This document shows, piece by piece, positions 12,247 through 28,431 of a stretch of DNA of 64,000 nt. Under the pieces are notes generated by a model. The model was not told where the DNA came from. It did no database searches and saw nothing but the letters and a program-made list of their open reading frames with translations. The position numbers and the translations under genes were made by a program. This DNA is from Candidatus Parcubacteria bacterium (GTDB taxonomy: Bacteria; Patescibacteriota; Patescibacteriia; Patescibacteriales; UBA12075). Each line of letters starts with the position of its first letter. The first letter of the stretch is position 1. The stretch covers positions 251,362 through 315,361 of the forward strand of contig PKTK01000001.1 in NCBI GenBank assembly GCA_002869165.1, written 5' to 3'.

Positions 12247-14964
12247 ATGCTTGAAAAACAGAGGAAAGTACAGCTTAATATTTCTCAAAAAAGATCTAGG
12301 TCAAATTATTTAGTAGATTTAGGTAAAGAATTTGAAAAAACTGATGATCTGGAGAAAAATGAAAAGAACATTTTTTTAGAAAAAAAAGATGGTCTTTTTT
12401 TGTTTTTAAAAAATAAAAGTAATTTTGTAAGTTCAAGTACTTCTAAAACAGTCTTGCTTTTTGAGAGCAACAGTTTTTTAAAAAATATAGTAAACAAGAT
12501 AAGAAGACTAGTTTTTATTCAATTAATCATGGCTTTGATTTTGTTTATTTGGAAAGGCCTTTTATTTGTTTTGAATATTGCTTACAACATTGGGTATTCT
12601 TTTGTTTTTGTTTGCAAGTTTTTGTTCTTTTTCTTTGTAATTGCTTTTTCAAAAATATTTAATTTATTTAACACCAAAAAAGAAACTGTTTCGGAAGAGA
12701 TTGCCGAACAGAAAAACGAGTACCATTTTGATATTGATGATTTTAATTTTGCTCTGCAAGACTCAAAAAAAGTAACTTTTGAAAAAGAGATTGAAGAGAA
12801 AACTGAAGAGATAGTTTCTGAGCCAGTTATTTCAAAAGAAGATAAGAAAATAAAGAAAAAATTCAAACAATTAAAATTAATACAATCCAGAAAATCATAT
12901 AGAGATTTTTTAGATTCTTTACTTCCAAAACCAGACAAAATTTTTTTGCGACCAGCAATAGCTTTTGCAATGGTCCTTTTTATTTTGGTTTTACTTTTTA
13001 AAGCGCTAACTTATTATGGCGTGATAAATGATTTAAAAGGGAGGGTTTTGGGGGTTTCCGAAGAGGCTGTTGGTGATATTAAGAATGCTGGTAATTATGC
13101 TACTGAGCTTGATTTTTCTCAAGCAAGCCTAGAATTTGCTCAAGCTAGTGAAAATTTCTCCAAAGCTCAGGAGGAAATTGGAGTGGTTAGTAAATTCTTG
13201 CAAGTGCTACAAAAATTAATTCCTAATTCAAAGATAGAATTAGCAGCTGATGCTGAATATGTTTTGGAATCAGGAAAAATTAGTTCAGAGATTGGTAAAG
13301 AAGTTAGCCAGATGTTTGTTAATTTCTCTGAATTAGAAGAAAAAAGCATAGCAAATGTTTATTTGGTTTTTTCAGAGTCAATTTTCAAATTAAGAATATT
13401 AACTGAAGACTTGTACCAAAATGTTTCTCAAATAGATTCAGAAAATATTCCTTTAGAGCATCAAGAAACTTTTAATTTGACATTAGAAAAGACCAGACAA
13501 ATCAGGGATAGTTTTAAGGAGTTAAGTCTTTTAATGGAAGACTTTCGGGTGTTTTTAGGTTTTGAAAGTGAAAAAAGATATTTATTAATTTTTCAAAATA
13601 ATTCTGAAATGAGAGCTAGTGGAGGCTTTATGGGAAGTTTTGCTTTAGTTGATTTTCGAAATGGGGAATTAGTGAATATTGAAGTGCCTGAAGGGGGTAC
13701 CTATGATACAGAAGCAGGACTACTTGATCGTATAATATCTCCTGAACCTATGCATATAGTAAATCCACTTTGGCACTTATGGGATTCAAACTGGTGGCCT
13801 GATTGGAAAAAGAGTGCTAAGAAAATAGAATGGTTTTATGAGCGTAGCGATGGTTCAAGCGTGGATGGAGTAATTGCTTTTACTCCTGATGTAGTTGAGA
13901 ATTTGCTTAGAGCAATGGGCCCACTTGATATGCAGAAGACACATGGTGTAACGATCGATGCAGATAATTTTTGGGAAGTGACTCAAACCTTTGCTGAAGC
14001 AAAACCAGAAACTCACCCAGCCTATGAACCATTGCCATATACTCCAGAGAACAAGGCTAGTGGTACAAGTATTATGGAGGCGGGGAATAACAATAAACCT
14101 AAAAAGATAATAGGAGATTTGATTGCTGTTATCAAAGAAGAACTTCCTTTGAGACTCAACAAGGATATGTTTTTGGAGATTTTAGCTGGAGCAGAAAGAA
14201 GCTTGGCGGCTAAGCATGTGTTGTTTTATTTTGATGATTGGCAATTGCAAAATAAATTTGAACAACTTGGTTGGGCTGGTAGGATAGAAGAAACTTCATG
14301 GGATTATTTGATGGTTGTTAACACAAATATTTCTGGAGGGAAAAGCGACCGGGCAATTGAGCAAGAGATAAGTCATAATGCAGAATTACAAAGCGACGGT
14401 TCAATAGTGGACACTTTAACTATAGCCAGAACTCATACTGGAGAAAAGGGAGAGGAGTTTGTGGGAGTTAAAAATCTTGACTGGATGAGAATTTATGTTC
14501 CTTTGGGAAGTGAGTTTATTGAGGCAAGTGGTTTTTGGCCACCTAGTGAAGAGTTGTTTGAAGACCCTGAAGAAGGTTGGTTAGAAGACCCTGATTTAGA
14601 AAATGAAAAAAGTTTTACTAGAGACAGAATATCTTGGACTAAGATCTATAATGAGAGTCAAAAAACTGTTTTTGCTAATTGGGCTCAAGTTGATCCAGGA
14701 AAGACGGTGGTGATTACCATAAAATATAAATTACCATTCTCACTTGATATGAATACACCTCCAACAAAGGAACTTGGTGCCTATGCTTTATTTTTACAAA
14801 AACAACCAGGTGCAAAAAGCTGTAATATTGAATCAAGCCTAGTATTGTCTGATGAGGTAAGACCTATTTGGCATTATCCAGAAGATCTGAACACGGGGGT
14901 GTATGGCTGGCACAGAGAAGATGTTTTGGATGAAGATAAATATTACGCAGTTAGACTCAAATAG
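12247..14964 (+). CDS. giant membrane-anchored protein of unknown function (possibly DUF4012-like)
   Basis: 905 aa; two TM segments (about residues 90-130 and 225-250), a long coiled/acidic region, a conserved-looking core YLLIFQNNSEMRASGGFMGSFALVDFRNGEL, and a C-terminal globular domain rich in W and D. Confidence 0.6.
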   Translation: MLEKQRKVQLNISQKRSRSNYLVDLGKEFEKTDDLEKNEKNIFLEKKDGLFLFLKNKSNFVSSSTSKTVLLFESNSFLKNIVNKIRRLVFIQLIMALILFIWKGLLFVLNIAYNIGYSFVFVCKFLFFFFVIAFSKIFNLFNTKKETVSEEIAEQKNEYHFDIDDFNFALQDSKKVTFEKEIEEKTEEIVSEPVISKEDKKIKKKFKQLKLIQSRKSYRDFLDSLLPKPDKIFLRPAIAFAMVLFILVLLFKALTYYGVINDLKGRVLGVSEEAVGDIKNAGNYATELDFSQASLEFAQASENFSKAQEEIGVVSKFLQVLQKLIPNSKIELAADAEYVLESGKISSEIGKEVSQMFVNFSELEEKSIANVYLVFSESIFKLRILTEDLYQNVSQIDSENIPLEHQETFNLTLEKTRQIRDSFKELSLLMEDFRVFLGFESEKRYLLIFQNNSEMRASGGFMGSFALVDFRNGELVNIEVPEGGTYDTEAGLLDRIISPEPMHIVNPLWHLWDSNWWPDWKKSAKKIEWFYERSDGSSVDGVIAFTPDVVENLLRAMGPLDMQKTHGVTIDADNFWEVTQTFAEAKPETHPAYEPLPYTPENKASGTSIMEAGNNNKPKKIIGDLIAVIKEELPLRLNKDMFLEILAGAERSLAAKHVLFYFDDWQLQNKFEQLGWAGRIEETSWDYLMVVNTNISGGKSDRAIEQEISHNAELQSDGSIVDTLTIARTHTGEKGEEFVGVKNLDWMRIYVPLGSEFIEASGFWPPSEELFEDPEEGWLEDPDLENEKSFTRDRISWTKIYNESQKTVFANWAQVDPGKTVVITIKYKLPFSLDMNTPPTKELGAYALFLQKQPGAKSCNIESSLVLSDEVRPIWHYPEDLNTGVYGWHREDVLDEDKYYAVRLK

Positions 14965-17469
14965 ATGCAAAATATTAGTTATACAACAAATACTTATCCA
15001 AAAGATATGCTTTATATTGATACGGGCATGTTGATTTTTTTGTTTATAATATTTTTCTTTTTGTTAGGCTTTTTCTTAATACGCTTTTTTATGCGTAAAA
15101 ATCATGACAGAACAAATAGGAGTGACATGGTGATTCAAAAGATTAGAGTTCCAAAAGAGAAGCCAGGTGAAGCAAATAGAGAATACAATGTACAAATGCT
15201 TCACGAGGAGATAGCTAGGGCAGAAACTGTTTTTGCAAGTATTGGTGGTCTACAAGCAGAAAGAGGTTTTGTTGCTTGGTTTTTTGGTCGTAATGATCAC
15301 TACTCTTTCGAAATTGTAGCTAACAAAAAAACTATTTATTTTTATATTGTTACTCCTATTGGAATGCAAAGATACATTGAGCAACAGGTACATGCACATT
15401 ATCCTGAAGCAGTGATTGAAGAAGTTGATGACTATAATATATTTGAAAGTAACTCATATGTAGCTTCAGGTTCCCTAAAAACTAAGCGCAAAGGATTTTT
15501 GCCGATTAAAACTTATAAGAACATGGAAACAGATGCTATGAATTCTATAATTAATGTACTTTCAAAACTTAAGGATAGTGAGAGTATTGCAATTCAGTTT
15601 GCAGTTCGAAGTGCAAAAGCAAGCTGGCACAATGATGCCTCAAAAGTACGGAAAGCAATTAGTAAGGGCAAATCTTTACCAGAGGCTATCAAGCTAGCTG
15701 GTAAGGGAATGTTTGGCGAGATAATCGGTGAAGCTTTTAGTAGTGCGAAAAAAGACATGGACCAAAATTCTAATATGCATAACAGGCTCACAACTATGGA
15801 AGAGGAGATTTTGAAATCTATCGAAGAAAAGAATTCTAAGGCTGGTTTGGATGTCAACATTAGAATTATTGTTAGCACCAAAGATAAAGCCAGTTCTTCG
15901 ATTTATATCTCTAATTTAGCCAGTGCTTTTTCACAATTTAGTTTATATGAGAATGGAAATAGCTTTCCTAATAAAATAAAAGTAAAGCAAAATCCTAGCA
16001 TAGTAAGCGATTTTATTCACAGAAGATTTAATGAGCAGAGTTCTTTTCTTTTGAATACTGAGGAATTGGCTAGTATTTATCATTTTCCTTTACGTAATTC
16101 AGAGACTCCTAATATTGATTGGCTAAAAGCCAAGCAAGCCCCAGCTCCAAGTAACATTCCTAATGTTGGTGTTATTCTAGGTTATAACATCTATCGTGGC
16201 CAAAGATCTGATATTAAGATTTCTAGGGCAGATAGGAGAAGACATATGTATGTTTTAGGAAAGTCTGGTGTTGGTAAGTCGAAATTGATTGCCAATATGG
16301 CAGTACAAGATATTTTGAATGGTGAAGGTGTTTGCATAATGGATCCGCATGGTGATTTGATAGATGATTGTTTGAAAAGAATTCCACCAGAACGGGCCGA
16401 AGACGTGATTATTTTTTCACCAGCTGACTTTGAAAGACCACTAGCACTTAACTTAATGGAATATGATATTAGATACCCAGAACAGAAAACTTTTATAATA
16501 AATGAGATGATAAATATTTTTGATAAGCTTTATGATTTGAAATCAACTGGTGGGCCAATCTTTGAACAATATATGAGAAATGCAATGTTGTTAGTAATGT
16601 CTCATCCAGAGTCAGGCTCAACTCTCATGGAGATACCAAGAGTATTAGCAGATCCTGAATTCAGAAAAATGAAGCTAAGTAATTGCAATGATGCTACTGT
16701 GGTGGATTTTTGGCGCAAAGAAGCTGAGAAAGCCGGGGGAGATGCAGCGTTAGCTAATGTTGTCCCATATATAACTAGTAAATTGACTCAATTTATTTCT
16801 AATGACACTATGAGACCAATTATTGGTCAACAGAAGAGCTCATTTAATTTTCGAGATGTTATGGATTCACAAAAGATTTTATTAGTTGATTTATCCAAAG
16901 GGCAAATTGGTGAGCTCAACTCTCATCTCTTGGGAATGATTATTGTTGGTAAGATTCTTATGTCAGCTCTTTCTCGAGCGGATATGCGAGAAGAAAGCAG
17001 AAAAGATTTTTATTTATATATTGATGAATTTCAAAATTTTACCACTGATTCAATTTGCTCAATTCTTTCAGAAGCTAGAAAGTATGGACTCAATCTAATT
17101 ATTGCTCATCAATACATTTGTCAATTAGTCAAAAATCAAGATACAGCTATCAGAGATGCAGTGTTTGGTAATGTGGGTTCCTGGATTACTTTTAAAATAG
17201 GCTCGGATGATGCAGAGGTTTTGGAAAAGGAATTTTCTCCTGTCTTCAATCAATTTGATTTACTTAACATTGAAAAATATACTGCTTATTCAAAAATACT
17301 GATAGATAATACAGCCAGTCGACCATTTTCTATGATGACCCCATGGCCTTTGGCAGGACAGGAAAGAGATGACATAAAAACAAAAATTGCAAAACTTTCT
17401 CGATTAAAATACGGTCATGATAGGCAAATGGTTGAAGCCTTGATAAAAAAAAGAACCCAATTTTTATAA
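14965..17469 (+). CDS. VirD4/TraG/TraD-like (type IV coupling protein family) or HerA-like P-loop ATPase with N-terminal TM helix
   Basis: 834 aa; N-terminal TM (LIFLFIIFFFLLGFFLIRFF); Walker A YVLGKSGVGKSKL followed by a DPHGD motif; Walker B LYIDEFQNF. Confidence 0.65.
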   Translation: MQNISYTTNTYPKDMLYIDTGMLIFLFIIFFFLLGFFLIRFFMRKNHDRTNRSDMVIQKIRVPKEKPGEANREYNVQMLHEEIARAETVFASIGGLQAERGFVAWFFGRNDHYSFEIVANKKTIYFYIVTPIGMQRYIEQQVHAHYPEAVIEEVDDYNIFESNSYVASGSLKTKRKGFLPIKTYKNMETDAMNSIINVLSKLKDSESIAIQFAVRSAKASWHNDASKVRKAISKGKSLPEAIKLAGKGMFGEIIGEAFSSAKKDMDQNSNMHNRLTTMEEEILKSIEEKNSKAGLDVNIRIIVSTKDKASSSIYISNLASAFSQFSLYENGNSFPNKIKVKQNPSIVSDFIHRRFNEQSSFLLNTEELASIYHFPLRNSETPNIDWLKAKQAPAPSNIPNVGVILGYNIYRGQRSDIKISRADRRRHMYVLGKSGVGKSKLIANMAVQDILNGEGVCIMDPHGDLIDDCLKRIPPERAEDVIIFSPADFERPLALNLMEYDIRYPEQKTFIINEMINIFDKLYDLKSTGGPIFEQYMRNAMLLVMSHPESGSTLMEIPRVLADPEFRKMKLSNCNDATVVDFWRKEAEKAGGDAALANVVPYITSKLTQFISNDTMRPIIGQQKSSFNFRDVMDSQKILLVDLSKGQIGELNSHLLGMIIVGKILMSALSRADMREESRKDFYLYIDEFQNFTTDSICSILSEARKYGLNLIIAHQYICQLVKNQDTAIRDAVFGNVGSWITFKIGSDDAEVLEKEFSPVFNQFDLLNIEKYTAYSKILIDNTASRPFSMMTPWPLAGQERDDIKTKIAKLSRLKYGHDRQMVEALIKKRTQFL

Positions 17470-21117: not shown

Positions 21118-21188
21118 TCGGAGATCGTCTAATGGTAGGACTCGAGGTTCTGGTCCTCGCTATCGGGGTTCGAATCCCTGTCTCCGAG
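21118..21188 (+). tRNA. tRNA-Gln (anticodon CUG)
   Basis: Manual cloverleaf: acceptor TCGGAGA/TCTCCGA (U1:A72, typical of bacterial tRNA-Gln), D-stem GTCT/GGAC, anticodon stem CGAGG/CCTCG with loop TTCTGGT, T-arm CGGGG-TTCGAAT-CCCTG, discriminator G; no encoded CCA. Confidence 0.8.
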
Positions 21189-21344
21189 CAAATTTATGAG
21201 CACCCTATTTGGGTGCTTTTAAATTTGTTTGGTGGCAGGTTTGAGAACCCTTACTAACACACATGTTAAAATAATTTAATTAAAAAATTATAGCTTAAAT
21301 ATGGATAACGGCACCTTTGTTGGTGAGAATCCCTGTCTCCGAGC
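21189..21344 (+). repeat. about 155-bp repeat unit, copy A: tRNA terminator hairpin, internal AT-rich segment, 18-nt copy of the tRNA-Gln 3' end
   Basis: GAGCACCCTATTTGGGTGC terminator at 21198; GAATCCCTGTCTCCGAGC at 21327-21344 is identical to 21172-21189; near-identical to 25849-25996. Confidence 0.8.
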
Positions 21345-21454
21345 TTAAAGAAAAAAGAATTATTTAAATAGCTATATAGTTATATAATTTTTCATATAAT
21401 GTCAAAATAAAAAGATTAGACTATGAAGTTGGTACGGCATAGATTAGACTTTTG

Positions 21455-21490
21455 GGCATGAAAAAAGGGAGCTCTAAGTTCAGAGCTCCC
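21455..21490 (-). terminator. rho-independent terminator for the minus-strand operon
   Basis: GGGAGCTCTGAACTTAGAGCTCCC hairpin followed by a T-run on the minus strand. Confidence 0.6.
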
Positions 21491-21509
21491 AAAAATGGTG
21501 ACGGTGGGT

Positions 21510-21725
21510 TTACCACTTGATATCATCGATATCAAAGCGTTTGCTATAACCGCCGTCCATGCCTTCGGCTTTGCCAATTCCCGGTATCGAGGTAGTCTCG
21601 TGGAATGAACCTTGAGCGAAGGTAAAATGCGAATTGCCGGCGCCCTTGAATACTGCGCCCCCCTCGAAAGTGTTGCTCAACGGAGCGATTTCGATATTGT
21701 TGGGTTTGAATATTGGTCCTGACAT
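21510..21725 (-). CDS. small Gly-rich protein of unknown function (71 aa)
   Basis: Start moved to the internal Met preceded by AGGAGGG RBS; locally elevated GC by eye; sequence MSGPIFKPNNIEIAPLSNTFEGGAVFKGAGNSHF... Confidence 0.45.
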   Translation of the reverse strand: MSGPIFKPNNIEIAPLSNTFEGGAVFKGAGNSHFTFAQGSFHETTSIPGIGKAEGMDGGYSKRFDIDDIKW

Positions 21726-21801
21726 AATTTGCCCTCCTTTTTTCTTTGCCTGCTTTATGCTTGGCAAAAATGGTAATTTAATACTATCACCTTAAGTAAA
21801 T

Positions 21802-22395
21802 TTAGTCAAGATCTAATAAATAACTAATTTTATTCTTAAGTGAATAATATTTAGTATTTGTTATTTGCTTGTTTTTGTAAGTCTTGAAAGCCTTTTTAAG
21901 GAGATAGTCACTTTTTTCTAGCAGGTAACTGAAGAGAATTACTTTTTTGTTATTTGCATAATAATCAGCAAAATAGTAATAACTTAAACTAAAAACAAGA
22001 TTCAATAAAGCAATTTCAAGGCTTAGTTTTTCGTAGTGCTCAGCACTCAGAAAGACTTGCTGTGCCATGTTTAAATGATGTTTTACGGTCGCATCAGAGG
22101 CATCCAGTGATCTTAATCTCTGAGTGCTTTGCAAAAGATCAAGTCCTGAAATTAATCTTCCGGTCAATAGAGGTTCTGATACTATTGGGTCAAATGATTT
22201 TAAGAAGTGGTCAAAATATCTATGCCCCACTATAGTAAAATCAAATTTTTCTATTTCAGTTCTGTCATAACAAATATCATTTTTACATAAAATAAAAATA
22301 TCTATATCTTTACCATTTTTGTTTCCGTATTGGTAGGCAGAAATTATATTTTCAATGCTAATATAATTAAGTAGATTAAATAGTAATATATTCAT
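21802..22395 (-). CDS. minimal nucleotidyltransferase-fold protein (Pol-beta superfamily), tentative
   Basis: 197 aa; YGNKNGKDIDIFIL fits the G[SN]-x-G-x-DxD NTase signature. Confidence 0.45.
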   Translation of the reverse strand: MNILLFNLLNYISIENIISAYQYGNKNGKDIDIFILCKNDICYDRTEIEKFDFTIVGHRYFDHFLKSFDPIVSEPLLTGRLISGLDLLQSTQRLRSLDASDATVKHHLNMAQQVFLSAEHYEKLSLEIALLNLVFSLSYYYFADYYANNKKVILFSYLLEKSDYLLKKAFKTYKNKQITNTKYYSLKNKISYLLDLD

Positions 22396-22735
22396 TACCT
22401 ATCTCCTTTTCGCAGGTTGTTAATGTTCCGAAATCTTACAATAGCTAATTATTGTAAAAATGTCAATAATCTTTTCTGATGGAATTCGAGATAATGAGTT
22501 TACAAAAGTCATAGATTTTGATTATAATTTATTAGTTAGTAGCTTAATTATACATCAGTCTGTGACTTTTTATTTATTATACCCAATTATAATAAAGATT
22601 TCATCTGAGATGCTTAAGATAAATATTAATGTTTATCTAGTTTTTTAGTTGAATGTAAAATTGATTACTGCTAAGAGCCGTAATTAATTTTGGTTCTAAC
22701 ATCGTCTACGACCCTGAGCCAAGAAATTTACAAAA

Positions 22736-22775
22736 AACACCGCTAATATTGGTTAGTATTGTCGGTGTTTTTTGT
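22736..22775 (+). terminator. rho-independent terminator
   Basis: ACACCG-loop-CGGTGT hairpin followed by TTTTTTG. Confidence 0.5.
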
Positions 22776-22781
22776 TTGGGT

Positions 22782-22796
22782 GACAGGGATTCGAAC
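22782..22796 (-). repeat. inverted 15-nt copy of the tRNA-Gln T-arm/acceptor sequence (GTTCGAATCCCTGTC)
   Basis: Plus strand reads GACAGGGATTCGAAC, the reverse complement of tRNA-Gln 21166-21180. Confidence 0.7.
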
Positions 22797-22834
22797 TAGA
22801 ATGGCTAATAATAGCGATTAGTATTGTTTTTAAA

Positions 22835-22863
22835 TTGACATTATAAGTGATTAATGATAATTT
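22835..22863 (+). promoter_or_regulatory. candidate sigma70-type promoter upstream of the radical SAM gene
   Basis: TTGACA, 17 nt, TAATTT. Confidence 0.3.
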
Positions 22864-22940
22864 GTAATGAACAATTATTTATAATTAAGATATTGAATAA
22901 ATATTAATAGTTCATTGAAAACTATAAAGGAGGTAGTAAT

Positions 22941-23984
22941 ATGTGCGAATCACAGGATATTAATACATGTTGGTTAACAGTTAATAGGTCTTGTCAATTG
23001 CGTTGTAAGTGGTGTTATGCGAAAGATGATGGATATGATGCAAAAAGTGATATGGATTTTTCTTTAGCAAAAAAGCTAATAAAAATTATTAAAAATCTTG
23101 GTTCGCAAACCTGTAAAATACTTGGCGGTGAACCATCTATCTACCCACATATAAAGGATGTTATAAATCAATTAAAGCTCCAACAAATCAGAAGTATCAT
23201 AATATCTAATGGTCTTCAATATTCAGATAAGAGTTTTATGCAAAAGCATTTTGATGCTGGCCTTGATAGCCTTGTAATATCATTAAAAGCTGGGACAGGG
23301 GAGTCATACAAACAACTGACTGGTGCTAATGTTATTAAAAAAGTATATCAAGCCATAAGTAATCTGGCCGATTTTCAAGGGGGAGTGACAATAACTATTG
23401 CAGACGAGATATCAGAAGAAATTATTCCTTCTCTTCGTTCTATTGTAGATACTGGAGCCCGTTTTGTAAATTTACATTTTTGTTCACCTACGCTCATATC
23501 TGGATCTCCTGAAAACCATTCAATGCTTTCACCTGATAAAGCCGCAGAGGTAATGATGAAGGCGGTTGATAGTTTAGAACAATTAAATGTATCATATAAT
23601 GTTCAGATATCGATTCCCTTTTGTCTTTTTAGTTCGGATTTTATTAATAGTCTGATTAATAAAAACTGTTTGACCTCAGGTTGTATTGTGAATAAAAAAA
23701 GTGGTATAATATTTGGAACCAGAGGAGAGGTAGGTTTTTGTAACCACATGATGGAGTACCCGTTCGGCCGTTATGGTATTGATTTTCATAATGCGACTGA
23801 ATTGCATGAATTGTACTTTAGTCAGGAGGAGTTTTTTAAAATGACTAATCGGGCTCCGAGCGAACAATGTCTAAGTTGCCCGGTTAAACATTTATGTTGC
23901 GGAGGATGCCCATTGCAATGGACTCAATTTCAACCCAATAAATATGTAAAAGGAGGTGAAAAATTTGTAGGTCAGAAATATTGA
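22941..23984 (+). CDS. radical SAM/SPASM-domain peptide-modifying enzyme
   Basis: 347 aa; N-terminal CQLRCKWC (CxxxCxxC radical SAM cluster motif); C-terminal Cys-rich SPASM-like region CLSCPVKHLCCGGCPLQ; RBS AAGGAGG. Confidence 0.85.
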   Translation: MCESQDINTCWLTVNRSCQLRCKWCYAKDDGYDAKSDMDFSLAKKLIKIIKNLGSQTCKILGGEPSIYPHIKDVINQLKLQQIRSIIISNGLQYSDKSFMQKHFDAGLDSLVISLKAGTGESYKQLTGANVIKKVYQAISNLADFQGGVTITIADEISEEIIPSLRSIVDTGARFVNLHFCSPTLISGSPENHSMLSPDKAAEVMMKAVDSLEQLNVSYNVQISIPFCLFSSDFINSLINKNCLTSGCIVNKKSGIIFGTRGEVGFCNHMMEYPFGRYGIDFHNATELHELYFSQEEFFKMTNRAPSEQCLSCPVKHLCCGGCPLQWTQFQPNKYVKGGEKFVGQKY

Positions 23985-24047
23985 TTATCAGAATGAAAGA
24001 CAAGTCAATTGATTTAAAACGTAAACTATTTTATTGGAGGTAAAAAA

Positions 24048-24218
24048 ATGAGTCAAAAAAACAAAAAACAAAAAAAGAAAAACGCTGCCGAAATGCTTTT
24101 AAAACATTCGTTGGCTTCTCAAGTTCATTTCGAGAAGCGCCCTATCGGATTGACCGGAAAATTTTCCTCACTTTGCGATGGCGATTGCGGTGACGGGGTT
24201 TGTGGTCAGTGCAACTAA
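24048..24218 (+). CDS. candidate RiPP precursor peptide (56 aa, Cys-rich C-terminus)
   Basis: Not in the ORF track (under 60 aa); RBS GGAGGT upstream; Lys-rich leader MSQKNKKQKKKN..., core ...SSLCDGDCGDGVCGQCN with four Cys in 13 residues; 63 nt downstream of the rSAM gene. Confidence 0.55.
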   Translation: MSQKNKKQKKKNAAEMLLKHSLASQVHFEKRPIGLTGKFSSLCDGDCGDGVCGQCN

Positions 24219-24236
24219 AACGTTTGCACTAAATTT

Positions 24237-24857
24237 CTAGTAGCCTTCCTTATTTTTAATAAGGAAGGTTTTTTCTTTAAAATTAAGATTATTAATGAGG
24301 TCGGTAGATATTTTTTTTGTTTGTTTTTGTGGTTTATAATTCAAACAAATATTTTTTAATATTTTGCTCATACAAAGAGCGTCAACGATAGCTTCTTTTT
24401 CCCAGTGAGATATATTGTATTTTTTTATAAATGGTTGTTCGATGATTATGTGTATTGTTTCATGAATAATCATTTTTAGTATCCAATTCGGAGAATTATT
24501 TAGCATTACAGAGATTTTATTAGGAGGAGAATATGAACCGCCTGGACCATAAATCGTAAAATAAACATTTACTGTATCAGGAGTGTTGTACCCAAAAAGT
24601 GAAAAATAATAATTAATAATCTTAGTATTCTCTACTATTAATCTTTTAAGTTGAGGTTTAAGTTCAGTGTAAATTTTATTTGCGGAAGGGAATTCTGTTT
24701 CTACGGCTTTAATAATTTCATCGTTTGAACTGTTTATATCAATTCTATTTGGTAACTTTATTTTATATCCATTTTTTTCAAACCAACCAAGTTTTGAAAC
24801 CATGTTTCTTGCATGTTCAATTTCGTTTTTTAATGTGTAATGTAATGTAAAATTCAT
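24237..24857 (-). CDS. hypothetical protein with HExxH motif (putative metallopeptidase)
   Basis: 206 aa; IIHETIHIII; convergent with the precursor gene. Confidence 0.5.
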   Translation of the reverse strand: MNFTLHYTLKNEIEHARNMVSKLGWFEKNGYKIKLPNRIDINSSNDEIIKAVETEFPSANKIYTELKPQLKRLIVENTKIINYYFSLFGYNTPDTVNVYFTIYGPGGSYSPPNKISVMLNNSPNWILKMIIHETIHIIIEQPFIKKYNISHWEKEAIVDALCMSKILKNICLNYKPQKQTKKISTDLINNLNFKEKTFLIKNKEGY

Positions 24858-25022
24858 ATACTTTTATCTTATAAAAATAAAATATTTATTATTTATTATT
24901 ATACAGTTATTAGGCGTTAAATCAATACACCATCATGACTAAATTATTATAAAGTTAAAATCAATTCAATTATTTATTATTAGCAAAAAAGGTTCGGAAG
25001 CTGTTCCTGTAAGCGAGCAAAT

Positions 25023-25203
25023 TTAAGAGCACCCTATTTGGGTGCTTTTAAATTTGTTTGGGAGACAGCGGAGTCGAACCCCTTTGAGGTATATTAATTT
25101 ATAGAATAATAATTACAAATCATCAAGTATAATATATATTTATCTAAAAGTGAAATGATGACGGTGTGAGGGTTCCCCCTCTTCGAATCCCTGTCTCCGA
25201 GCA
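25023..25203 (+). repeat. repeat unit copy C: terminator hairpin, TIR-like arm GGGAGACAGCGGAGTCGAACCCC, AT-rich core, 19-nt tRNA-Gln 3' end copy
   Basis: GAATCCCTGTCTCCGAGCA at 25185-25203; preceded at 24991-25019 by a degenerate tRNA 3'-end-like sequence GGTTCGGAAGCTGTTCCTGTAAGCGAGCA. Confidence 0.7.
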
Positions 25204-25254
25204 AGTAAAAAGTAGCTAGTTTTAGCTATTTATTTGTTTGATTAATTAAAGCCC

Positions 25255-25283
25255 TTGACAAGATTTATATAGTATGCTATTAT
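25255..25283 (+). promoter_or_regulatory. near-consensus sigma70 promoter (TTGACA-17-TATTAT)
   Basis: TTGACA at 25255-25260, a 17-nt spacer, TATTAT at 25278-25283. Confidence 0.5.
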
Positions 25284-25387
25284 GTATTTAACAATAAAAA
25301 ATATAAACCAACAAAAAAAAGAGGAATACAGTGATGTATCGAAACAGTCTCACAATCTGGCCCTTGGTAGATACATAGAAGTTAGTG

Positions 25388-25415
25388 CCTCGGATTTCGA
25401 TTCGAGGCTTTTTTT
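25388..25415 (+). terminator. rho-independent terminator
   Basis: GCCTCGGATTTCGATTCGAGGC hairpin followed by a T8 run. Confidence 0.65.
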
Positions 25416-25427
25416 TCTACATAAAAA

Positions 25428-25453
25428 GTTCCCACGTCGTTCAAGGTGGTGAG
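25428..25453 (+). repeat. 26-nt conserved motif GTTCCCACGTCGTTCAAGGTGGTGAG, copy 1 of 3
   Basis: Same-orientation copies at 25814-25839 and 28465-28490 with 2-3 mismatches. Confidence 0.75.
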
Positions 25454-25534
25454 TAATTAGCTTGACAGGCTATCTATATTATGATTTAATTACTTGAAAG
25501 CAAAAATAAAATTAAATTAACGGGGGAGGTAATA

Positions 25535-25750
25535 ATGTTGAGTAACTATTATTTTGTAAAAAAACAAAGAAGAAAAATAGAATTTATCGAATTGTTAATA
25601 TTTGTGTGCTCTACAGCAATTGGCGGAATAGGATTATATTTTGATGCAGGCCTTATTCGCTCAATACTACTTGCGTTAGTTTGTATGGTTATAGGTCTGT
25701 GTTGCACAAATCTTACTTTGAATCGAGTTTATAGAAAAGCGGGAGCATAG
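25535..25750 (+). CDS. small membrane protein (71 aa)
   Basis: GGGGAGG RBS upstream; two hydrophobic helices. Confidence 0.4.
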   Translation: MLSNYYFVKKQRRKIEFIELLIFVCSTAIGGIGLYFDAGLIRSILLALVCMVIGLCCTNLTLNRVYRKAGA

Positions 25751-25813
25751 ATCATCGAACAACAAGTCAAGAGTTAGGATAATGCACCTAGCTCTTTTTA
25801 TTTTTAGAAAAAA

Positions 25814-25839
25814 GTTCCAACGTCGTTCAGGGTGGTGAG
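25814..25839 (+). repeat. 26-nt motif, copy 2
   Basis: GTTCCAACGTCGTTCAGGGTGGTGAG. Confidence 0.75.
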
Positions 25840-25848
25840 CAACTTTAA

Positions 25849-25996
25849 GAGCACCCTATTTGGGTGCTTTTAAATTTGTTTGGTGGCAGGTTTGAGAACC
25901 CCTTCTAACACACATATTAAAATAATTTAATTAAAAAATTATAGCTTAAATATGAATAACGGCACCTTTGTTGGTGAGAATCCCTGTCTCCGAGCA
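25849..25996 (+). repeat. about 155-bp repeat unit, copy B (near-identical to copy A)
   Basis: Terminator hairpin GAGCACCCTATTTGGGTGC and internal segment match 21198-21344 with a handful of substitutions; ends with GAATCCCTGTCTCCGAGCAAAT. Confidence 0.8.
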
Positions 25997-25998
25997 AA

Positions 25999-26035
25999 TC
26001 AAAATAGACCCTTTTAGGGTCTTTTTTGATTTTCT
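25999..26035 (+). terminator. rho-independent terminator
   Basis: AGACCCTTTTAGGGTCT hairpin followed by a T6 run. Confidence 0.55.
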
Positions 26036-26036
26036 T

Positions 26037-26168
26037 GAGAGCAGAGGATTCGAACCCCTTTGAGAGACAATATTTGAATCACCGTCCTAAGAATGATTTA
26101 TTAAATGTGAATAAATAATACTTCCGTGCTACATGACGGAGTGGGGTTCCCGCCTCTTCGAATCCCTG
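26037..26168 (+). repeat. repeat unit copy D (diverged), ending in a partial tRNA-Gln 3' fragment CTTCGAATCCCTG
   Basis: Left arm GAGAGCAGAGGATTCGAACCCC parallels the copy C arm; right arm GGGGTTCCCGCCTCTTCGAATCCCTG parallels the copy C right arm. Confidence 0.6.
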
Positions 26169-26766: not shown

Positions 26767-28431
26767 ATGTTTAAAGAGAAGCATTTTAGCCAAGAACCAA
26801 CAAGCGAAAAAAGAGAATCTAAGACCGAAATGTGTAAAGTGATAGACGATAGAATTGATGAATTATTATCAGAAAGAAAAAAATTATATGAAAAATTAAA
26901 TTCTATTAATTTTACCCACTGCTTTAGCGCTTTGCTGGATAATGAGATTATAAGTGATGATATTATAAATGATATTACAGAGGAGTGGTTGAATGTGGTG
27001 AAAAGTGAAACATGTTTTTTGGATTCACTTGACAGTCTTGGCATAGAAATCTTTAAGGATGACTTAACAGATCAGCCCAACTTTGACGAAACCATACTCT
27101 GGGGCTCTGATCTTAATTTTGAAGTTAGGCGCCCTGGTAGCAATTTGTCCTTAGGTGGATTTGCAAGAAGAGGGGATATGGATGATGAGGTACCAACTAT
27201 TGAAATTGCGACTGAAAAACCAGATTTACGATCTCAGTTATTATATTTAGCTCAAGAAGGGGCACTTCATCCTACAGTTAAAACATATATTCATGAGTTG
27301 ATTCATAGGGTTCACACCAGGGAAAATAGTTCTGTGTCAAGCGAACTTACAGAGGCGCATGCGTGGTTTTCAGGCATTATTGATCAGGGTGTAAAATTTA
27401 GTTTATTGGAGAAGGTTAACCATTTAGCCTCAGACGATGGATATGGATTTGACAGAGAAAAAGCCAATAGAGCACTCAAGGCTGTTTCTTCTTTGTCAGC
27501 TATGGGTGTGTCAGAAAAGAAAATTGCTGAGCTAGTAATTGGTTCTAAATACGATAAAGAAGAAGAGAAATATTTGCCATTAGAAGCAGAGGTTCATTCC
27601 ATGGCTGATGAACTTGGTGTGGATGAGCTCGATATACAGGCGCTTGAAGATATTTACAAAATAAACGCAAGTAACCAATTGCTAAAGGCAAGAATTTCTT
27701 TAATAGAAGGATTAACCAAAAAACTCACAAGAGAGGGAATCATTGAATCCAAAAAAGTTCATTCAAAGAAAAATTTAACTACATTACCATACTATGAAAT
27801 AGGCGGGAGTAAGCTACCTGGAAACATGTTTAGTCAAAATGTTATTGTTCTTGATAATGAAGAGTTTCCATACGATCCAATAGGCGAAAGACATGGGGTT
27901 GTTTTTGGCCGTTTTTTAAATGAAAAAGAGAGTAAACTCGAATACAATATTGGGCGTACATTAATTGATAGTGAAGGCGTTGTTAGTCTTGATATGTCCT
28001 CTAACAGTGAAGATGTAGAATATTATATGAATATTGTTCGAGAGAATTCTTCCAATATCAACAAAGAGAGTAAAGCTGTGTTTTTAAATAATTGTATAAA
28101 TATTTTTCCGGAGTTAGGAAGATTGGGAGAGGAAACACTTTCAAATGTCATAACAAAAAAAGATATAGAAGAGATTGTCACTTTTGACTTTATAGAAAAA
28201 AAGCTTAGTTCACTTTTCCTTTCTTTAAAATCAGTGTCTTCAAATAATTTACTACAAAAAGATAGGAGTGATGGAGCGGAAACGGGTAAATATTTAATGG
28301 ATAATATTGAAAAATTCCTAAATTTTTATAATATAAAAGTCGCAGATATTTATCCTCAGATAGATTTAATGAAAGAACTAATAAATAGGAAGATTGAGGC
28401 TCTAGAAGATAGAGACAAATTGAGCCATTGA
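26767..28431 (+). CDS. hypothetical protein with HExxH motif (HELIHRVH)
   Basis: 554-aa ORF; no other recognisable domain. Confidence 0.55.
   Translation: MFKEKHFSQEPTSEKRESKTEMCKVIDDRIDELLSERKKLYEKLNSINFTHCFSALLDNEIISDDIINDITEEWLNVVKSETCFLDSLDSLGIEIFKDDLTDQPNFDETILWGSDLNFEVRRPGSNLSLGGFARRGDMDDEVPTIEIATEKPDLRSQLLYLAQEGALHPTVKTYIHELIHRVHTRENSSVSSELTEAHAWFSGIIDQGVKFSLLEKVNHLASDDGYGFDREKANRALKAVSSLSAMGVSEKKIAELVIGSKYDKEEEKYLPLEAEVHSMADELGVDELDIQALEDIYKINASNQLLKARISLIEGLTKKLTREGIIESKKVHSKKNLTTLPYYEIGGSKLPGNMFSQNVIVLDNEEFPYDPIGERHGVVFGRFLNEKESKLEYNIGRTLIDSEGVVSLDMSSNSEDVEYYMNIVRENSSNINKESKAVFLNNCINIFPELGRLGEETLSNVITKKDIEEIVTFDFIEKKLSSLFLSLKSVSSNNLLQKDRSDGAETGKYLMDNIEKFLNFYNIKVADIYPQIDLMKELINRKIEALEDRDKLSH

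Follow-up and report, generated by a model that had tools for sequence, protein, structure and literature searches.

The closest described counterparts of the locus reported here are the gene clusters for ribosomally synthesised peptides with post-translational modifications (RiPPs) of the ranthipeptide type, in which a radical S-adenosylmethionine (SAM) enzyme with a SPASM domain is encoded next to a short precursor consisting of a conserved leader and a C-terminal core with several cysteines. PapB (freyrasin), CteB (thermocellin) and Tte1186 (SCIFF) form thioethers on such multi-Cys cores; in CX3D motifs, PapB attaches the Cys to the Asp beta-carbon, and auxiliary cluster I of the thioether synthases has three Cys ligands and an open site at which the substrate Cys is bound (PMC10177961). 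The canonical SPASM motif contains seven Cys (CX9-15GX4C ... CX2CX5CX3C ... C), which hold two auxiliary clusters. Here we analyse a cassette with this layout in a 64,000-nt stretch of DNA from Candidatus Parcubacteria bacterium (hereafter the window). It comprises the genes for a 347-aa radical-SAM/SPASM protein, a Cys-rich 56-aa peptide and a 206-aa protein with an HExxH motif (Table 1). All three, and the tRNA-Gln fragments around them, lie where a preliminary description had placed them. Its proposal of a RiPP cassette made of a SPASM maturase, a Cys-rich precursor and an HExxH protein is strongly supported by the enzyme class and by the co-conservation of the precursor and of the HExxH gene.

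The class of the enzyme, the constraint on the precursor gene and the co-conservation of the genes throughout the family, which in the Candidate Phyla Radiation (CPR, Patescibacteria) includes the HExxH gene, are established. We consider it likely that the three genes form a RiPP cassette of an undescribed, CPR/Patescibacteria-centred family, whose product carries thioether cross-links and is freed of its leader by the HExxH protein. That the enzyme modifies the 56-aa peptide is very probable.

The 347-aa protein scores 59.2 bits with the Pfam model Radical_SAM (PF04055; cut-off 29.5), which places it in the superfamily. Over residues 254-330 it scores 32.8 bits with the NCBIfam SPASM model TIGR04085 (cut-off 27), by which the preliminary description had suggested to verify the C-terminal domain. 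The CxxxCxxC cluster motif reads CQLRCKWC (residues 18-25), and the protein ends in CLSCPVKHLCCGGCPLQ. Among 32 homologues ten Cys are invariant (C18, C22, C25, C181, C248, C267, C310, C313, C319 and C323) and C228 is nearly so; C181 and C228 are specific to this family. The SPASM Cys follow the pattern C248-x13-G262-x4-C267 and C310-x2-C313-x5-C319-x3-C323, all positions being invariant, with no Cys after C323. When the HMMER alignment to CteB is read with the published cluster assignment (PMC10177961), C248, C267 and C323 are assigned to auxiliary cluster I, in line with the three-Cys open site of CteB, PapB and Tte1186, and C310, C313 and C319 correspond to auxiliary cluster II. A fourth Cys between C248 and C267, as in the anaerobic sulfatase-maturating enzyme (anSME), does not occur in the alignment of the 32 homologues.

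In a comparison with solved structures, the profile of the enzyme family had its best matches in SuiB (2.9e-19), SkfB (5.4e-16) and CteB (1.3e-15), followed by MoaA, PqqE and anSME. Of these, the full-length matches are SuiB, CteB and anSME, and each of the three has a peptide or protein as its substrate. The specific NCBIfam equivalogs, among them MoaA, NirJ, TrsS, StsB, PapB, ScmF, PqqE, anSME, ACGX and GeoRSP, all stayed far under their cut-offs; a grouping with non-RiPP enzymes, which according to the preliminary description would have spoken against a RiPP maturase, was not seen. Judged by these comparisons, the window enzyme sits among the SPASM/twitch enzymes without a clear nearest neighbour. 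It lacks the RiPP recognition element (RRE) that would precede the radical-SAM core with some 90-100 aa at the N-terminus, since the open reading frame (ORF) cannot be extended upstream and the homologues are mostly 333-396 aa long. Its alignments start at residue 136 of SuiB, residue 111 of SkfB and residue 93 of CteB.

The preliminary description had likened the locus to SCIFF, ranthipeptide and sactipeptide systems. The layout is indeed shared, but membership is not: the corresponding models gave no match or a score under the cut-off, and the RRE is missing. The 25 best NCBIfam families in the enzyme's listing include no SCIFF model (precursor TIGR03973, maturase TIGR03974), and the PapB-family model NF047865 reaches 44.5 bits against a cut-off of 340. 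The cluster motif lies at residue 18 in the RRE-less window enzyme and at about residues 104-119 in CteB and PapB. Further, the window enzyme lacks the last canonical SPASM Cys and has the two family-specific ones, and the partner gene encodes a zincin-fold HExxH protein, not the usual transporter or protease sets of ranthipeptide clusters. The sactipeptide maturases SkfB, AlbA and StsB have an RRE and are about 100 aa longer; the StsB model NF045574 gives 47.9 bits with the window enzyme (cut-off 625). Sactipeptide precursors carry their Cys in the N-terminal and the acceptors in the C-terminal half of the core, whereas the cores of the window family are of the alternating CxCxC or CDGDC kind. 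SuiB, which has an N-terminal RRE, joins Lys to Trp in streptide, while the window core is devoid of aromatic residues. Finally, anSME acts on a Cys or Ser of sulfatases and has a fully Cys-ligated auxiliary cluster I; no sulfatase is encoded in the neighbourhood in the window, and TIGR03942 (anSME) yields 33.6 bits against a cut-off of 349. The cassette would work like a ranthipeptide or sactipeptide cluster, but it belongs to no curated family.

The gene of the 56-aa peptide has no GenBank protein accession; its two neighbours carry the consecutive tags C0583_01265 and C0583_01270. The peptide ends in SSLCDGDCGDGVCGQCN and matches no Pfam family, no NCBIfam model at E up to 10, and no SCIFF or other precursor model. 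Its leader has a variable, Lys-rich N-terminus followed by the conserved AAEML...F.KRPxGLTGKFSSL. Enzyme relatives with 57-74% identity are adjoined by the same peptide (L001/L002, L003-L006, L008, L009, L104 and L106), and a protein search added six further precursors with the same core. The C-termini of these close relatives read ...RPxG[LV]TG[KQ]F[SA]SLCDGDCGDGVCGQCN, and in one more distant lineage the precursor ends in ...FTAMCDGDCGDGVCGQCD. The 14-residue core CDGDCGDGVCGQC[N/D] is constant in the 11 distinct precursors recovered: it is identical in the window, L001, L008, L009, L104 and P0283-P0288, and L005 differs by a single N-to-D exchange at the last residue. At every genomic occurrence of the core DNA examined, a radical-SAM and an HExxH gene are adjacent.

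The core contains four Cys in the spacing CX3CX4CX2C and three Asp, and no aromatic residue. Its sole variable position completes C-G-Q-C-[N/D], and the resulting CX3[N/D] spacing, which occurs once in the core and not as CX3D repeats, resembles the PapB motif; this is suggestive only. At the DNA level, we compared the window with L001, L008, L009 and L005. Pairs among the first four differ at 4-8 of the 14 core codons, and all differences are synonymous; taken together, such silent changes affect half of the core codons. In the 16 codons before the core, 1-5 replacements have accumulated within the same group and 11-12 relative to L005. The core is under tighter constraint than the leader. 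Because its core codons change only synonymously while the leader accumulates replacements, the 56-aa ORF is, to judge from its codons, a real gene whose translated sequence is under very strong purifying selection. The terminator-like hairpin downstream, which reaches into the 3' end of the convergent HExxH gene, would close the predicted transcription unit of enzyme and peptide.

The association of enzyme and peptide is not limited to the window clade. A scan with the enzyme profile, using one genome per species, yielded 148 relatives, of which the best 80 loci were taken for analysis; all non-redundant loci together provided 85 radical-SAM genes. A Cys-rich ORF of 40-130 aa on the same strand, ending 100-420 nt past the radical-SAM gene, follows directly downstream in 59 of them, while about 4.4 would be expected given how frequent such ORFs are elsewhere in these loci (binomial P ~2e-55). 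The precursors share a leader pattern, a short amphipathic start followed by ...[ST]xhxP...PxG[LI]..., and their cores are hypervariable and Cys-rich, for example CKNCICKCQNCKCGHC, CQGQCPCKCQCQCDC and ICDCDSGGECCSN; those from Firmicutes carry CDCDCDCD runs. With a shared leader and a variable core, they show the usual pattern of a RiPP precursor family, and the generic features of RiPP clusters (conserved leader, variable core, co-conserved enzyme and short precursor gene) are all found. None of ten family precursors, that of the window and nine others, matches an NCBIfam or Pfam model; a Cas5c hit of a 114-aa Firmicutes precursor (E 1.2) was discarded as a chance match. Both the conservation of the small ORF, with its leader motif and Cys-rich cores, and that of a homologous HExxH partner, which is present at 25 of 38 CPR loci, had been named in the preliminary description as checks of its reading, and both came out in its favour.

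The family also includes more divergent arrangements. In the Firmicutes branch (L031, L041, L050, L057, L072, L075 and L083; metagenome-assembled genomes labelled as Firmicutes) the precursors are very long poly-(C-D/N) peptides, the longest of 114 aa, in which CxC is repeated dozens of times. Some of their genes lie upstream of that of the enzyme or are present twice, and the branch has no homologous HExxH partner. At L007 (700-2069), where no gene was called in the source, an enzyme relative with 42% identity lies on a contig with higher GC content that is rich in small unannotated ORFs, and an overlapping downstream ORF of 99 aa contains two CCNG...C..C blocks. At some loci two paralogous radical-SAM genes of the family stand side by side (L020 2235-5017; L039; L048). 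One full-length relative, L088 (3950-5265), is located on a high-GC IMG/VR contig; its overlapping downstream precursor reads …TGIPQEPLIGV…CQCADCDTNDCG…, and no HExxH gene is present. As it is the only full-length relative on a viral-classified contig, a phage-borne origin of the family was rejected.

The third gene encodes a 206-aa protein with the motif IIHETIHIII, in which HETIH corresponds to residues 132-136 (window 24450-24464). A loop, YGPGGSY, is conserved, and the next helix bears H151-W-E-K-E155. An HExxH ORF of 110-300 aa within 3 kb accompanies 48 of the 85 enzymes. When the window protein and its 15 closest relatives were combined into a profile, 33 of 51 such neighbouring ORFs matched it at E<0.01; these are homologues and no chance motifs. 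If the loci are sorted by the labels of their records, a small HExxH protein is found at 34 of the 38 naming a CPR lineage, with homology to that of the window at the 25 mentioned above, and at one of the 19 labelled as Firmicutes, where it is non-homologous. The partner is specific to one branch of the family. A second subtype of the HExxH protein (G-HE-L-F-H / HEAxHF) accompanies the 'ICDCD...CC' type of core, and this pairing suggests co-evolution with the precursor. In an exhaustive profile search the HExxH family comprised 839 cluster representatives, almost all of about 200 aa and unannotated.

The AlphaFold model of the 206-aa protein is confident (pLDDT 92.3). It consists of an N-terminal helical part, a three-stranded sheet (95-118), the HExxH helix (123-145) and the following helix with the conserved H151-W-E-K-E155. 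P36, Y103, H132, E133, H136, K154 and E155 are invariant in a 60-member alignment. An HExxH helix after a mixed beta-sheet and a third metal ligand on the next helix are the structural hallmarks of the zincins (clan MA), so the model predicts a zincin fold, which would suit a protease and an Fe/alpha-ketoglutarate (alpha-KG) HExxH oxygenase of RiPP pathways alike. Weak matches among the 60 relatives were to SprT-like (4), DUF5700 (2) and Peptidase_MA_2 (1), and also to DUF6782 and flagellinolysin. From the small MA-clan zincins (SprT/Wss1, minigluzincins, DUF5700 and Peptidase_MA_2) the window protein differs by belonging to no Pfam or NCBIfam family and by an additional N-terminal domain of about 90 aa with the invariant P36 and a nearly invariant Y31. 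A sequence-profile search of the PDB with the HExxH family gave matches at E above 0.2 only, which were regarded as spurious. The preliminary description had proposed a leader peptidase or an immunity factor; whether the protein acts as the leader peptidase we rate as an even question.

We propose the following order of events. The leader would comprise about 42 aa, and its conserved part, AAEML...RPxGLTGKFSSL, would serve as the recognition element by which the RRE-less radical-SAM/SPASM enzyme binds the precursor. SAM would then be cleaved reductively at the CxxxCxxC cluster, and the resulting 5'-deoxyadenosyl radical would take a hydrogen off a residue beside a Cys that serves as acceptor (Asp, Gln, Asn, Gly or Val). 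The thiolate of this Cys, bound to the iron that auxiliary cluster I leaves open, would close the thioether ring. With four core Cys, up to four rings could be formed, giving a ranthipeptide- or sactipeptide-like product from which the HExxH protein, a predicted cytoplasmic zincin, would finally remove the leader. An intramolecular thioether between Cys and carbon is suggested because the cores are defined by Cys and lack the aromatic residues of known C-C cross-links, because auxiliary cluster I is apparently open, and because Asp, Asn and Gln stand beside the Cys. These three residues, which are potential acceptors here as in the ranthipeptides, are the acceptor types of known thioether-forming enzymes (PMC10177961). 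For this type of linkage the arguments for and against are nearly in balance.

Several observations weigh against the proposed cassette and its chemistry. The predicted chemistry of the window enzyme is derived from comparison of sequences, and by structure and sequence the enzyme is about equally near to SuiB (a C-C cross-linker), to anSME (Cys/Ser oxidation) and to the thioether synthases. The seventh SPASM Cys, which corresponds to C432 of CteB and is the fourth ligand of cluster II, has no counterpart in the window enzyme; C181 or C228 may replace it. The enzyme also has no RRE for leader recognition. In the window clade the HExxH gene is convergent and is not co-transcribed with the enzyme-peptide unit, and the HExxH protein itself falls into no Pfam or NCBIfam family and reaches no curated peptidase threshold. 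In addition, no transporter, immunity gene or regulator is linked to the cassette in the window.

The same genes could support a different chemistry. The enzyme might perform an anSME-type Cys oxidation, an epimerisation or a new Cys-centred cross-link, and the product could be an intracellular metal-binding or redox peptide which is not secreted. This would agree with the absence of a conserved exporter or immunity gene from the 84 loci compared and with the atypical SPASM Cys pattern. Moreover, the core with its CX3CX4CX2C spacing and three Asp stays invariant between lineages in which enzyme identity is as low as 57-74%, which suggests a fixed target or a metal site. The low anSME score given above and the missing anSME-type fourth ligand of auxiliary cluster I argue in the opposite direction. 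To our knowledge, wherever a radical-SAM enzyme working on multi-Cys cores with Asp, Thr or Asn nearby has been characterised, it makes thioethers, and we consider a non-thioether product unlikely.

Another explanation retains the cassette and assigns a different role to its third member. Parcubacteria are mostly anaerobic fermenters without a tricarboxylic acid cycle. The alpha-KG/Fe(II) HExxH enzymes have a zincin-like fold; in RiPP clusters they occur together with radical-SAM enzymes, and Asp is among the residues that they hydroxylate (PMC12636437). Such tailoring oxygenases add a beta-hydroxyl group to Asp, His or Gln or cut the backbone by oxidation. If the window protein were one of them, it would act on the Asp-rich core, and the leader would be kept or taken off by an unlinked protease. 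The three Asp of the window core and the co-variation of HExxH subtypes with core types are in line with this possibility. Yet neither the window protein nor any of the 60 family members matches TIGR04267/IPR026337, the model of the hydroxylases such as ChlH, BpmH and PflC, and the known enzymes are far larger or are fusions with a radical-SAM domain. Further, many cores of the family have few or no Asp, and from what is generally known of parcubacterial metabolism a dependence on O2 and alpha-KG fits poorly. An oxygenase therefore seems quite improbable to us. Least of all survives the idea that the enzyme is a cofactor or housekeeping maturase (MoaA-, NirJ- or AhbD-like) with the small ORF and the HExxH gene as unrelated neighbours: although MoaA and NirJ2 are its top NCBIfam rows by E-value and MoaA is among its structural neighbours, it is already contradicted by the low scores (67.8 bits against a cut-off of 231 for MoaA, 65 against 500 for NirJ2), by the Cys-rich ORF directly downstream in most relatives, by the strict purifying selection on the core and by the homologous HExxH partners amid otherwise non-conserved surroundings, and is thus extremely improbable.

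What the peptide could be used for was considered on the basis of the neighbouring genes, which were clustered all-against-all across 84 loci. The recurrent neighbours are limited to the HExxH families, a histidine kinase (10 loci) and an ABC ATPase (6 loci), and no transporter, immunity gene or regulator is broadly conserved across these loci. With neither an exporter nor an immunity gene nor a signal peptide linked to the cassette, a bacteriocin becomes a weaker proposition, and a signal, a metal-binding or a cofactor-like peptide is as plausible as an antimicrobial. A role in signalling or as a metal-binding or cofactor-like peptide would be compatible with the core frozen in the window clade, with the triad kept in many reduced genomes and with the histidine kinase next to some cassettes. 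The kinase, a multi-transmembrane protein with a HATPase_c domain, is encoded within 4 kb of the cassette at L012, L019, L032, L040, L048, L055, L063, L071, L081 and L086; at L012 (1058-3684) the kinase and a response regulator lie directly upstream of the radical-SAM gene. This adjacency is a possible hint at signalling, and no histidine kinase was detected among the neighbouring ORFs of the window scanned with Pfam.

Beyond the cassette proposed above, a bolder picture can be drawn. The family could represent an RRE-independent RiPP system of the CPR, in which the hitherto unrecognised zincin family (~840 clusters) reads the leader and perhaps adds a tailoring reaction other than hydrolysis, the radical-SAM enzyme with its atypical set of SPASM Cys puts a new pattern of cross-links on the CxC/CDGDC cores, and the product is a conserved signal or metal-binding peptide which episymbionts with reduced genomes require for living on hosts, rather than an antibiotic. 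As a whole we regard this picture as doubtful.

The cassette is located in a 4.65-kb segment (21345-25836) bracketed by a pair of 159-nt direct repeats with 96% identity (repeat family D2), and further partial copies are present inside. On the direct strand, the pattern of the tRNA-Gln 3' end has four matches with up to three mismatches, compared to none in 100 shuffled sequences. Direct repeats of a tRNA 3' end that bracket a segment are the mark of a tRNA island, and the arrangement looks like the scar of repeated integration at the tRNA. The preliminary description had suggested that the cassette is mobile cargo of such an island. The repeats are real, but the remaining expectations did not hold: ORF reading, Pfam and NCBIfam revealed no integrase-like ORF in the region 21.2-26 kb, the GC content of the segment (0.28-0.35) is within the range of the window, and no tRNA directly flanks the cassette at any of 18 related loci scanned. 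Among these 18, only L010 has tRNAs in the flank, a tRNA-Lys and a tRNA-Arg about 0.5 and 1.8 kb downstream of its peptide. An empty site was sought with an exact 35-mer from the repeat, which had no match in metagenome contigs. The relatives carry the cassette in unrelated gene contexts, and such non-syntenic positions fit horizontal movement or rearrangement. Mobility of the cassette is thus suggested by its surroundings.

Table 1. Features of the cassette and of the tRNA-Gln repeats around it (positions refer to the window)
Feature	Position	Strand	Basis
Radical-SAM/SPASM protein, putative peptide maturase, 347 aa (PLX27848.1, C0583_01265)	22941-23984	+	ORF translation; GenBank 'hypothetical protein'
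GGAGGT, putative ribosome-binding site of the radical-SAM gene	22929-22934	+	Sequence reading; 6 nt upstream of the ATG at 22941
Precursor-peptide ORF, 56 aa, start 63 nt past the radical-SAM stop	24048-24218	+	ORF reading
GGAGGT, putative ribosome-binding site of the precursor gene	24036-24041	+	Sequence reading; 6 nt upstream of the ATG at 24048
Leader region, 42 aa, predicted boundary	24048-24173	+	Conservation among close relatives; family-wide leader motif
Predicted core peptide CDGDCGDGVCGQCN, 14 aa, plus stop codon	24174-24218	+	Core identity across precursors
Terminator-like hairpin, 13-bp stem and T-run	24242-24270	+	Consensus scan
HExxH protein, predicted zincin fold, 206 aa (PLX27849.1, C0583_01270)	24237-24857	-	ORF translation; GenBank 'hypothetical protein'
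tRNA-Gln (CTG), the only tRNA in the window	21118-21189	+	ARAGORN; Rfam tRNA 55.1 bits
Left copy of the 159-nt direct repeat, ending in a 23-nt copy of the tRNA-Gln 3' end (21322-21344)	21186-21344	+	Repeat and pattern search
Inverted 18-nt tRNA-Gln 3'-end fragment, 94% complementary, 145 nt upstream of the radical-SAM gene	22779-22796	-	Inverted repeats I9, I15
Direct 23-nt tRNA-Gln 3'-end fragment, 2 mismatches, downstream of the cassette	25180-25202	+	Repeat and pattern search
Right copy of the 159-nt direct repeat, ending in a tRNA-Gln 3' fragment (25973-25995)	25837-25995	+	Repeat and pattern search

The DNA following the tRNA-Gln gene is a mosaic of repeats (21186-21350, 24986-25085 and 25808-26060). 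A terminator hairpin, GAGCACCCTATTTGGGTGCTT, occurs three times in it, each time followed by TTTGTTTGG and a stretch resembling a reverse-complemented tRNA 3' end (TGGTGGCAGGTTTGAGAACCC at about 21229 and 25880, TGGGAGACAGCGGAGTCGAACCCC at about 25058). It also contains tRNA-Gln 3' fragments in forward orientation. The mosaic looks like a hotspot of recombination or integration made of fragments of several tRNAs.

Two further ORFs are present inside the repeat-bracketed segment. The first (21510-21767, minus strand) has 85 codons, of which probably 71 are used, starting from an ATG behind GGAGGG; it lies in a locally GC-richer patch, and its Gly-rich product, MSGPIFKPNNIEIAPLSNTFEGGAVFKGAGN..., has no Pfam match. 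The second, C0583_01260 (21802-22395, minus strand; 'hypothetical', 197 aa), matches neither Pfam nor NCBIfam, and its N-terminal G-x-x-x-G-K-D-I-D-I-F is reminiscent of minimal nucleotidyltransferases. It is probably separate cargo of the island and not a part of the cassette; the relatives have other genes at this place. Just outside the repeats, a 554-aa protein (26767-28431, plus strand) without a Pfam family contains the HExxH motif YIHELIHRVH; it was rejected as a second cassette member, being non-homologous to the HExxH family of the cassette. About 4 kb upstream of the tRNA-Gln region (12247-17469, plus strand) lie a DUF4012 protein of 905 aa and, after it, a type IV coupling protein of 834 aa that is VirD4/TraG-like (TrwB_AAD_bind, T4SS-DNA_transf). 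In Parcubacteria GW2011_GWA2_40_23 (L008 378-1486 / L106 7130-9342), which harbours a cassette with the identical core, we read the neighbouring sequences as a putative RelE/ParE-type toxin-antitoxin pair, an IS200/IS605-type transposase and transposase-like ORFs, which would fit a mobile neighbourhood.

The cassette is still a variation on a well-known theme, a radical-SAM enzyme with a Cys-rich peptide. CPR/Patescibacteria have stripped-down genomes, and genome mining frequently finds few biosynthetic clusters in them or none at all; for instance, no clusters were reported for metagenome-assembled genomes from deadwood (PMC11613949) and nine for an Antarctic soil data set (PMC8692599). The view of the preliminary description that such peptides are essentially undescribed in lineages of this kind agrees with the searchable literature, in which no radical-SAM RiPP of the CPR is described; as most subscription journals are outside this literature, its coverage is incomplete and the negative evidence weak. 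We find a compact triad in dozens of CPR species, that is, in lineages regarded as biosynthetically poor, with all three genes unannotated or called 'hypothetical', and in one clade a 14-residue core that is frozen while the rest of the locus diverges. With only three small genes, this makes the cassette a concrete and inexpensively testable candidate for the first characterised radical-SAM peptide from the CPR. It also brings to light a new zincin-like protein family with a testable role, and a SPASM enzyme working without an RRE bears on the question of how leaders are recognised. Last, the product may provide a handle on how CPR episymbionts talk to their hosts or exploit them.

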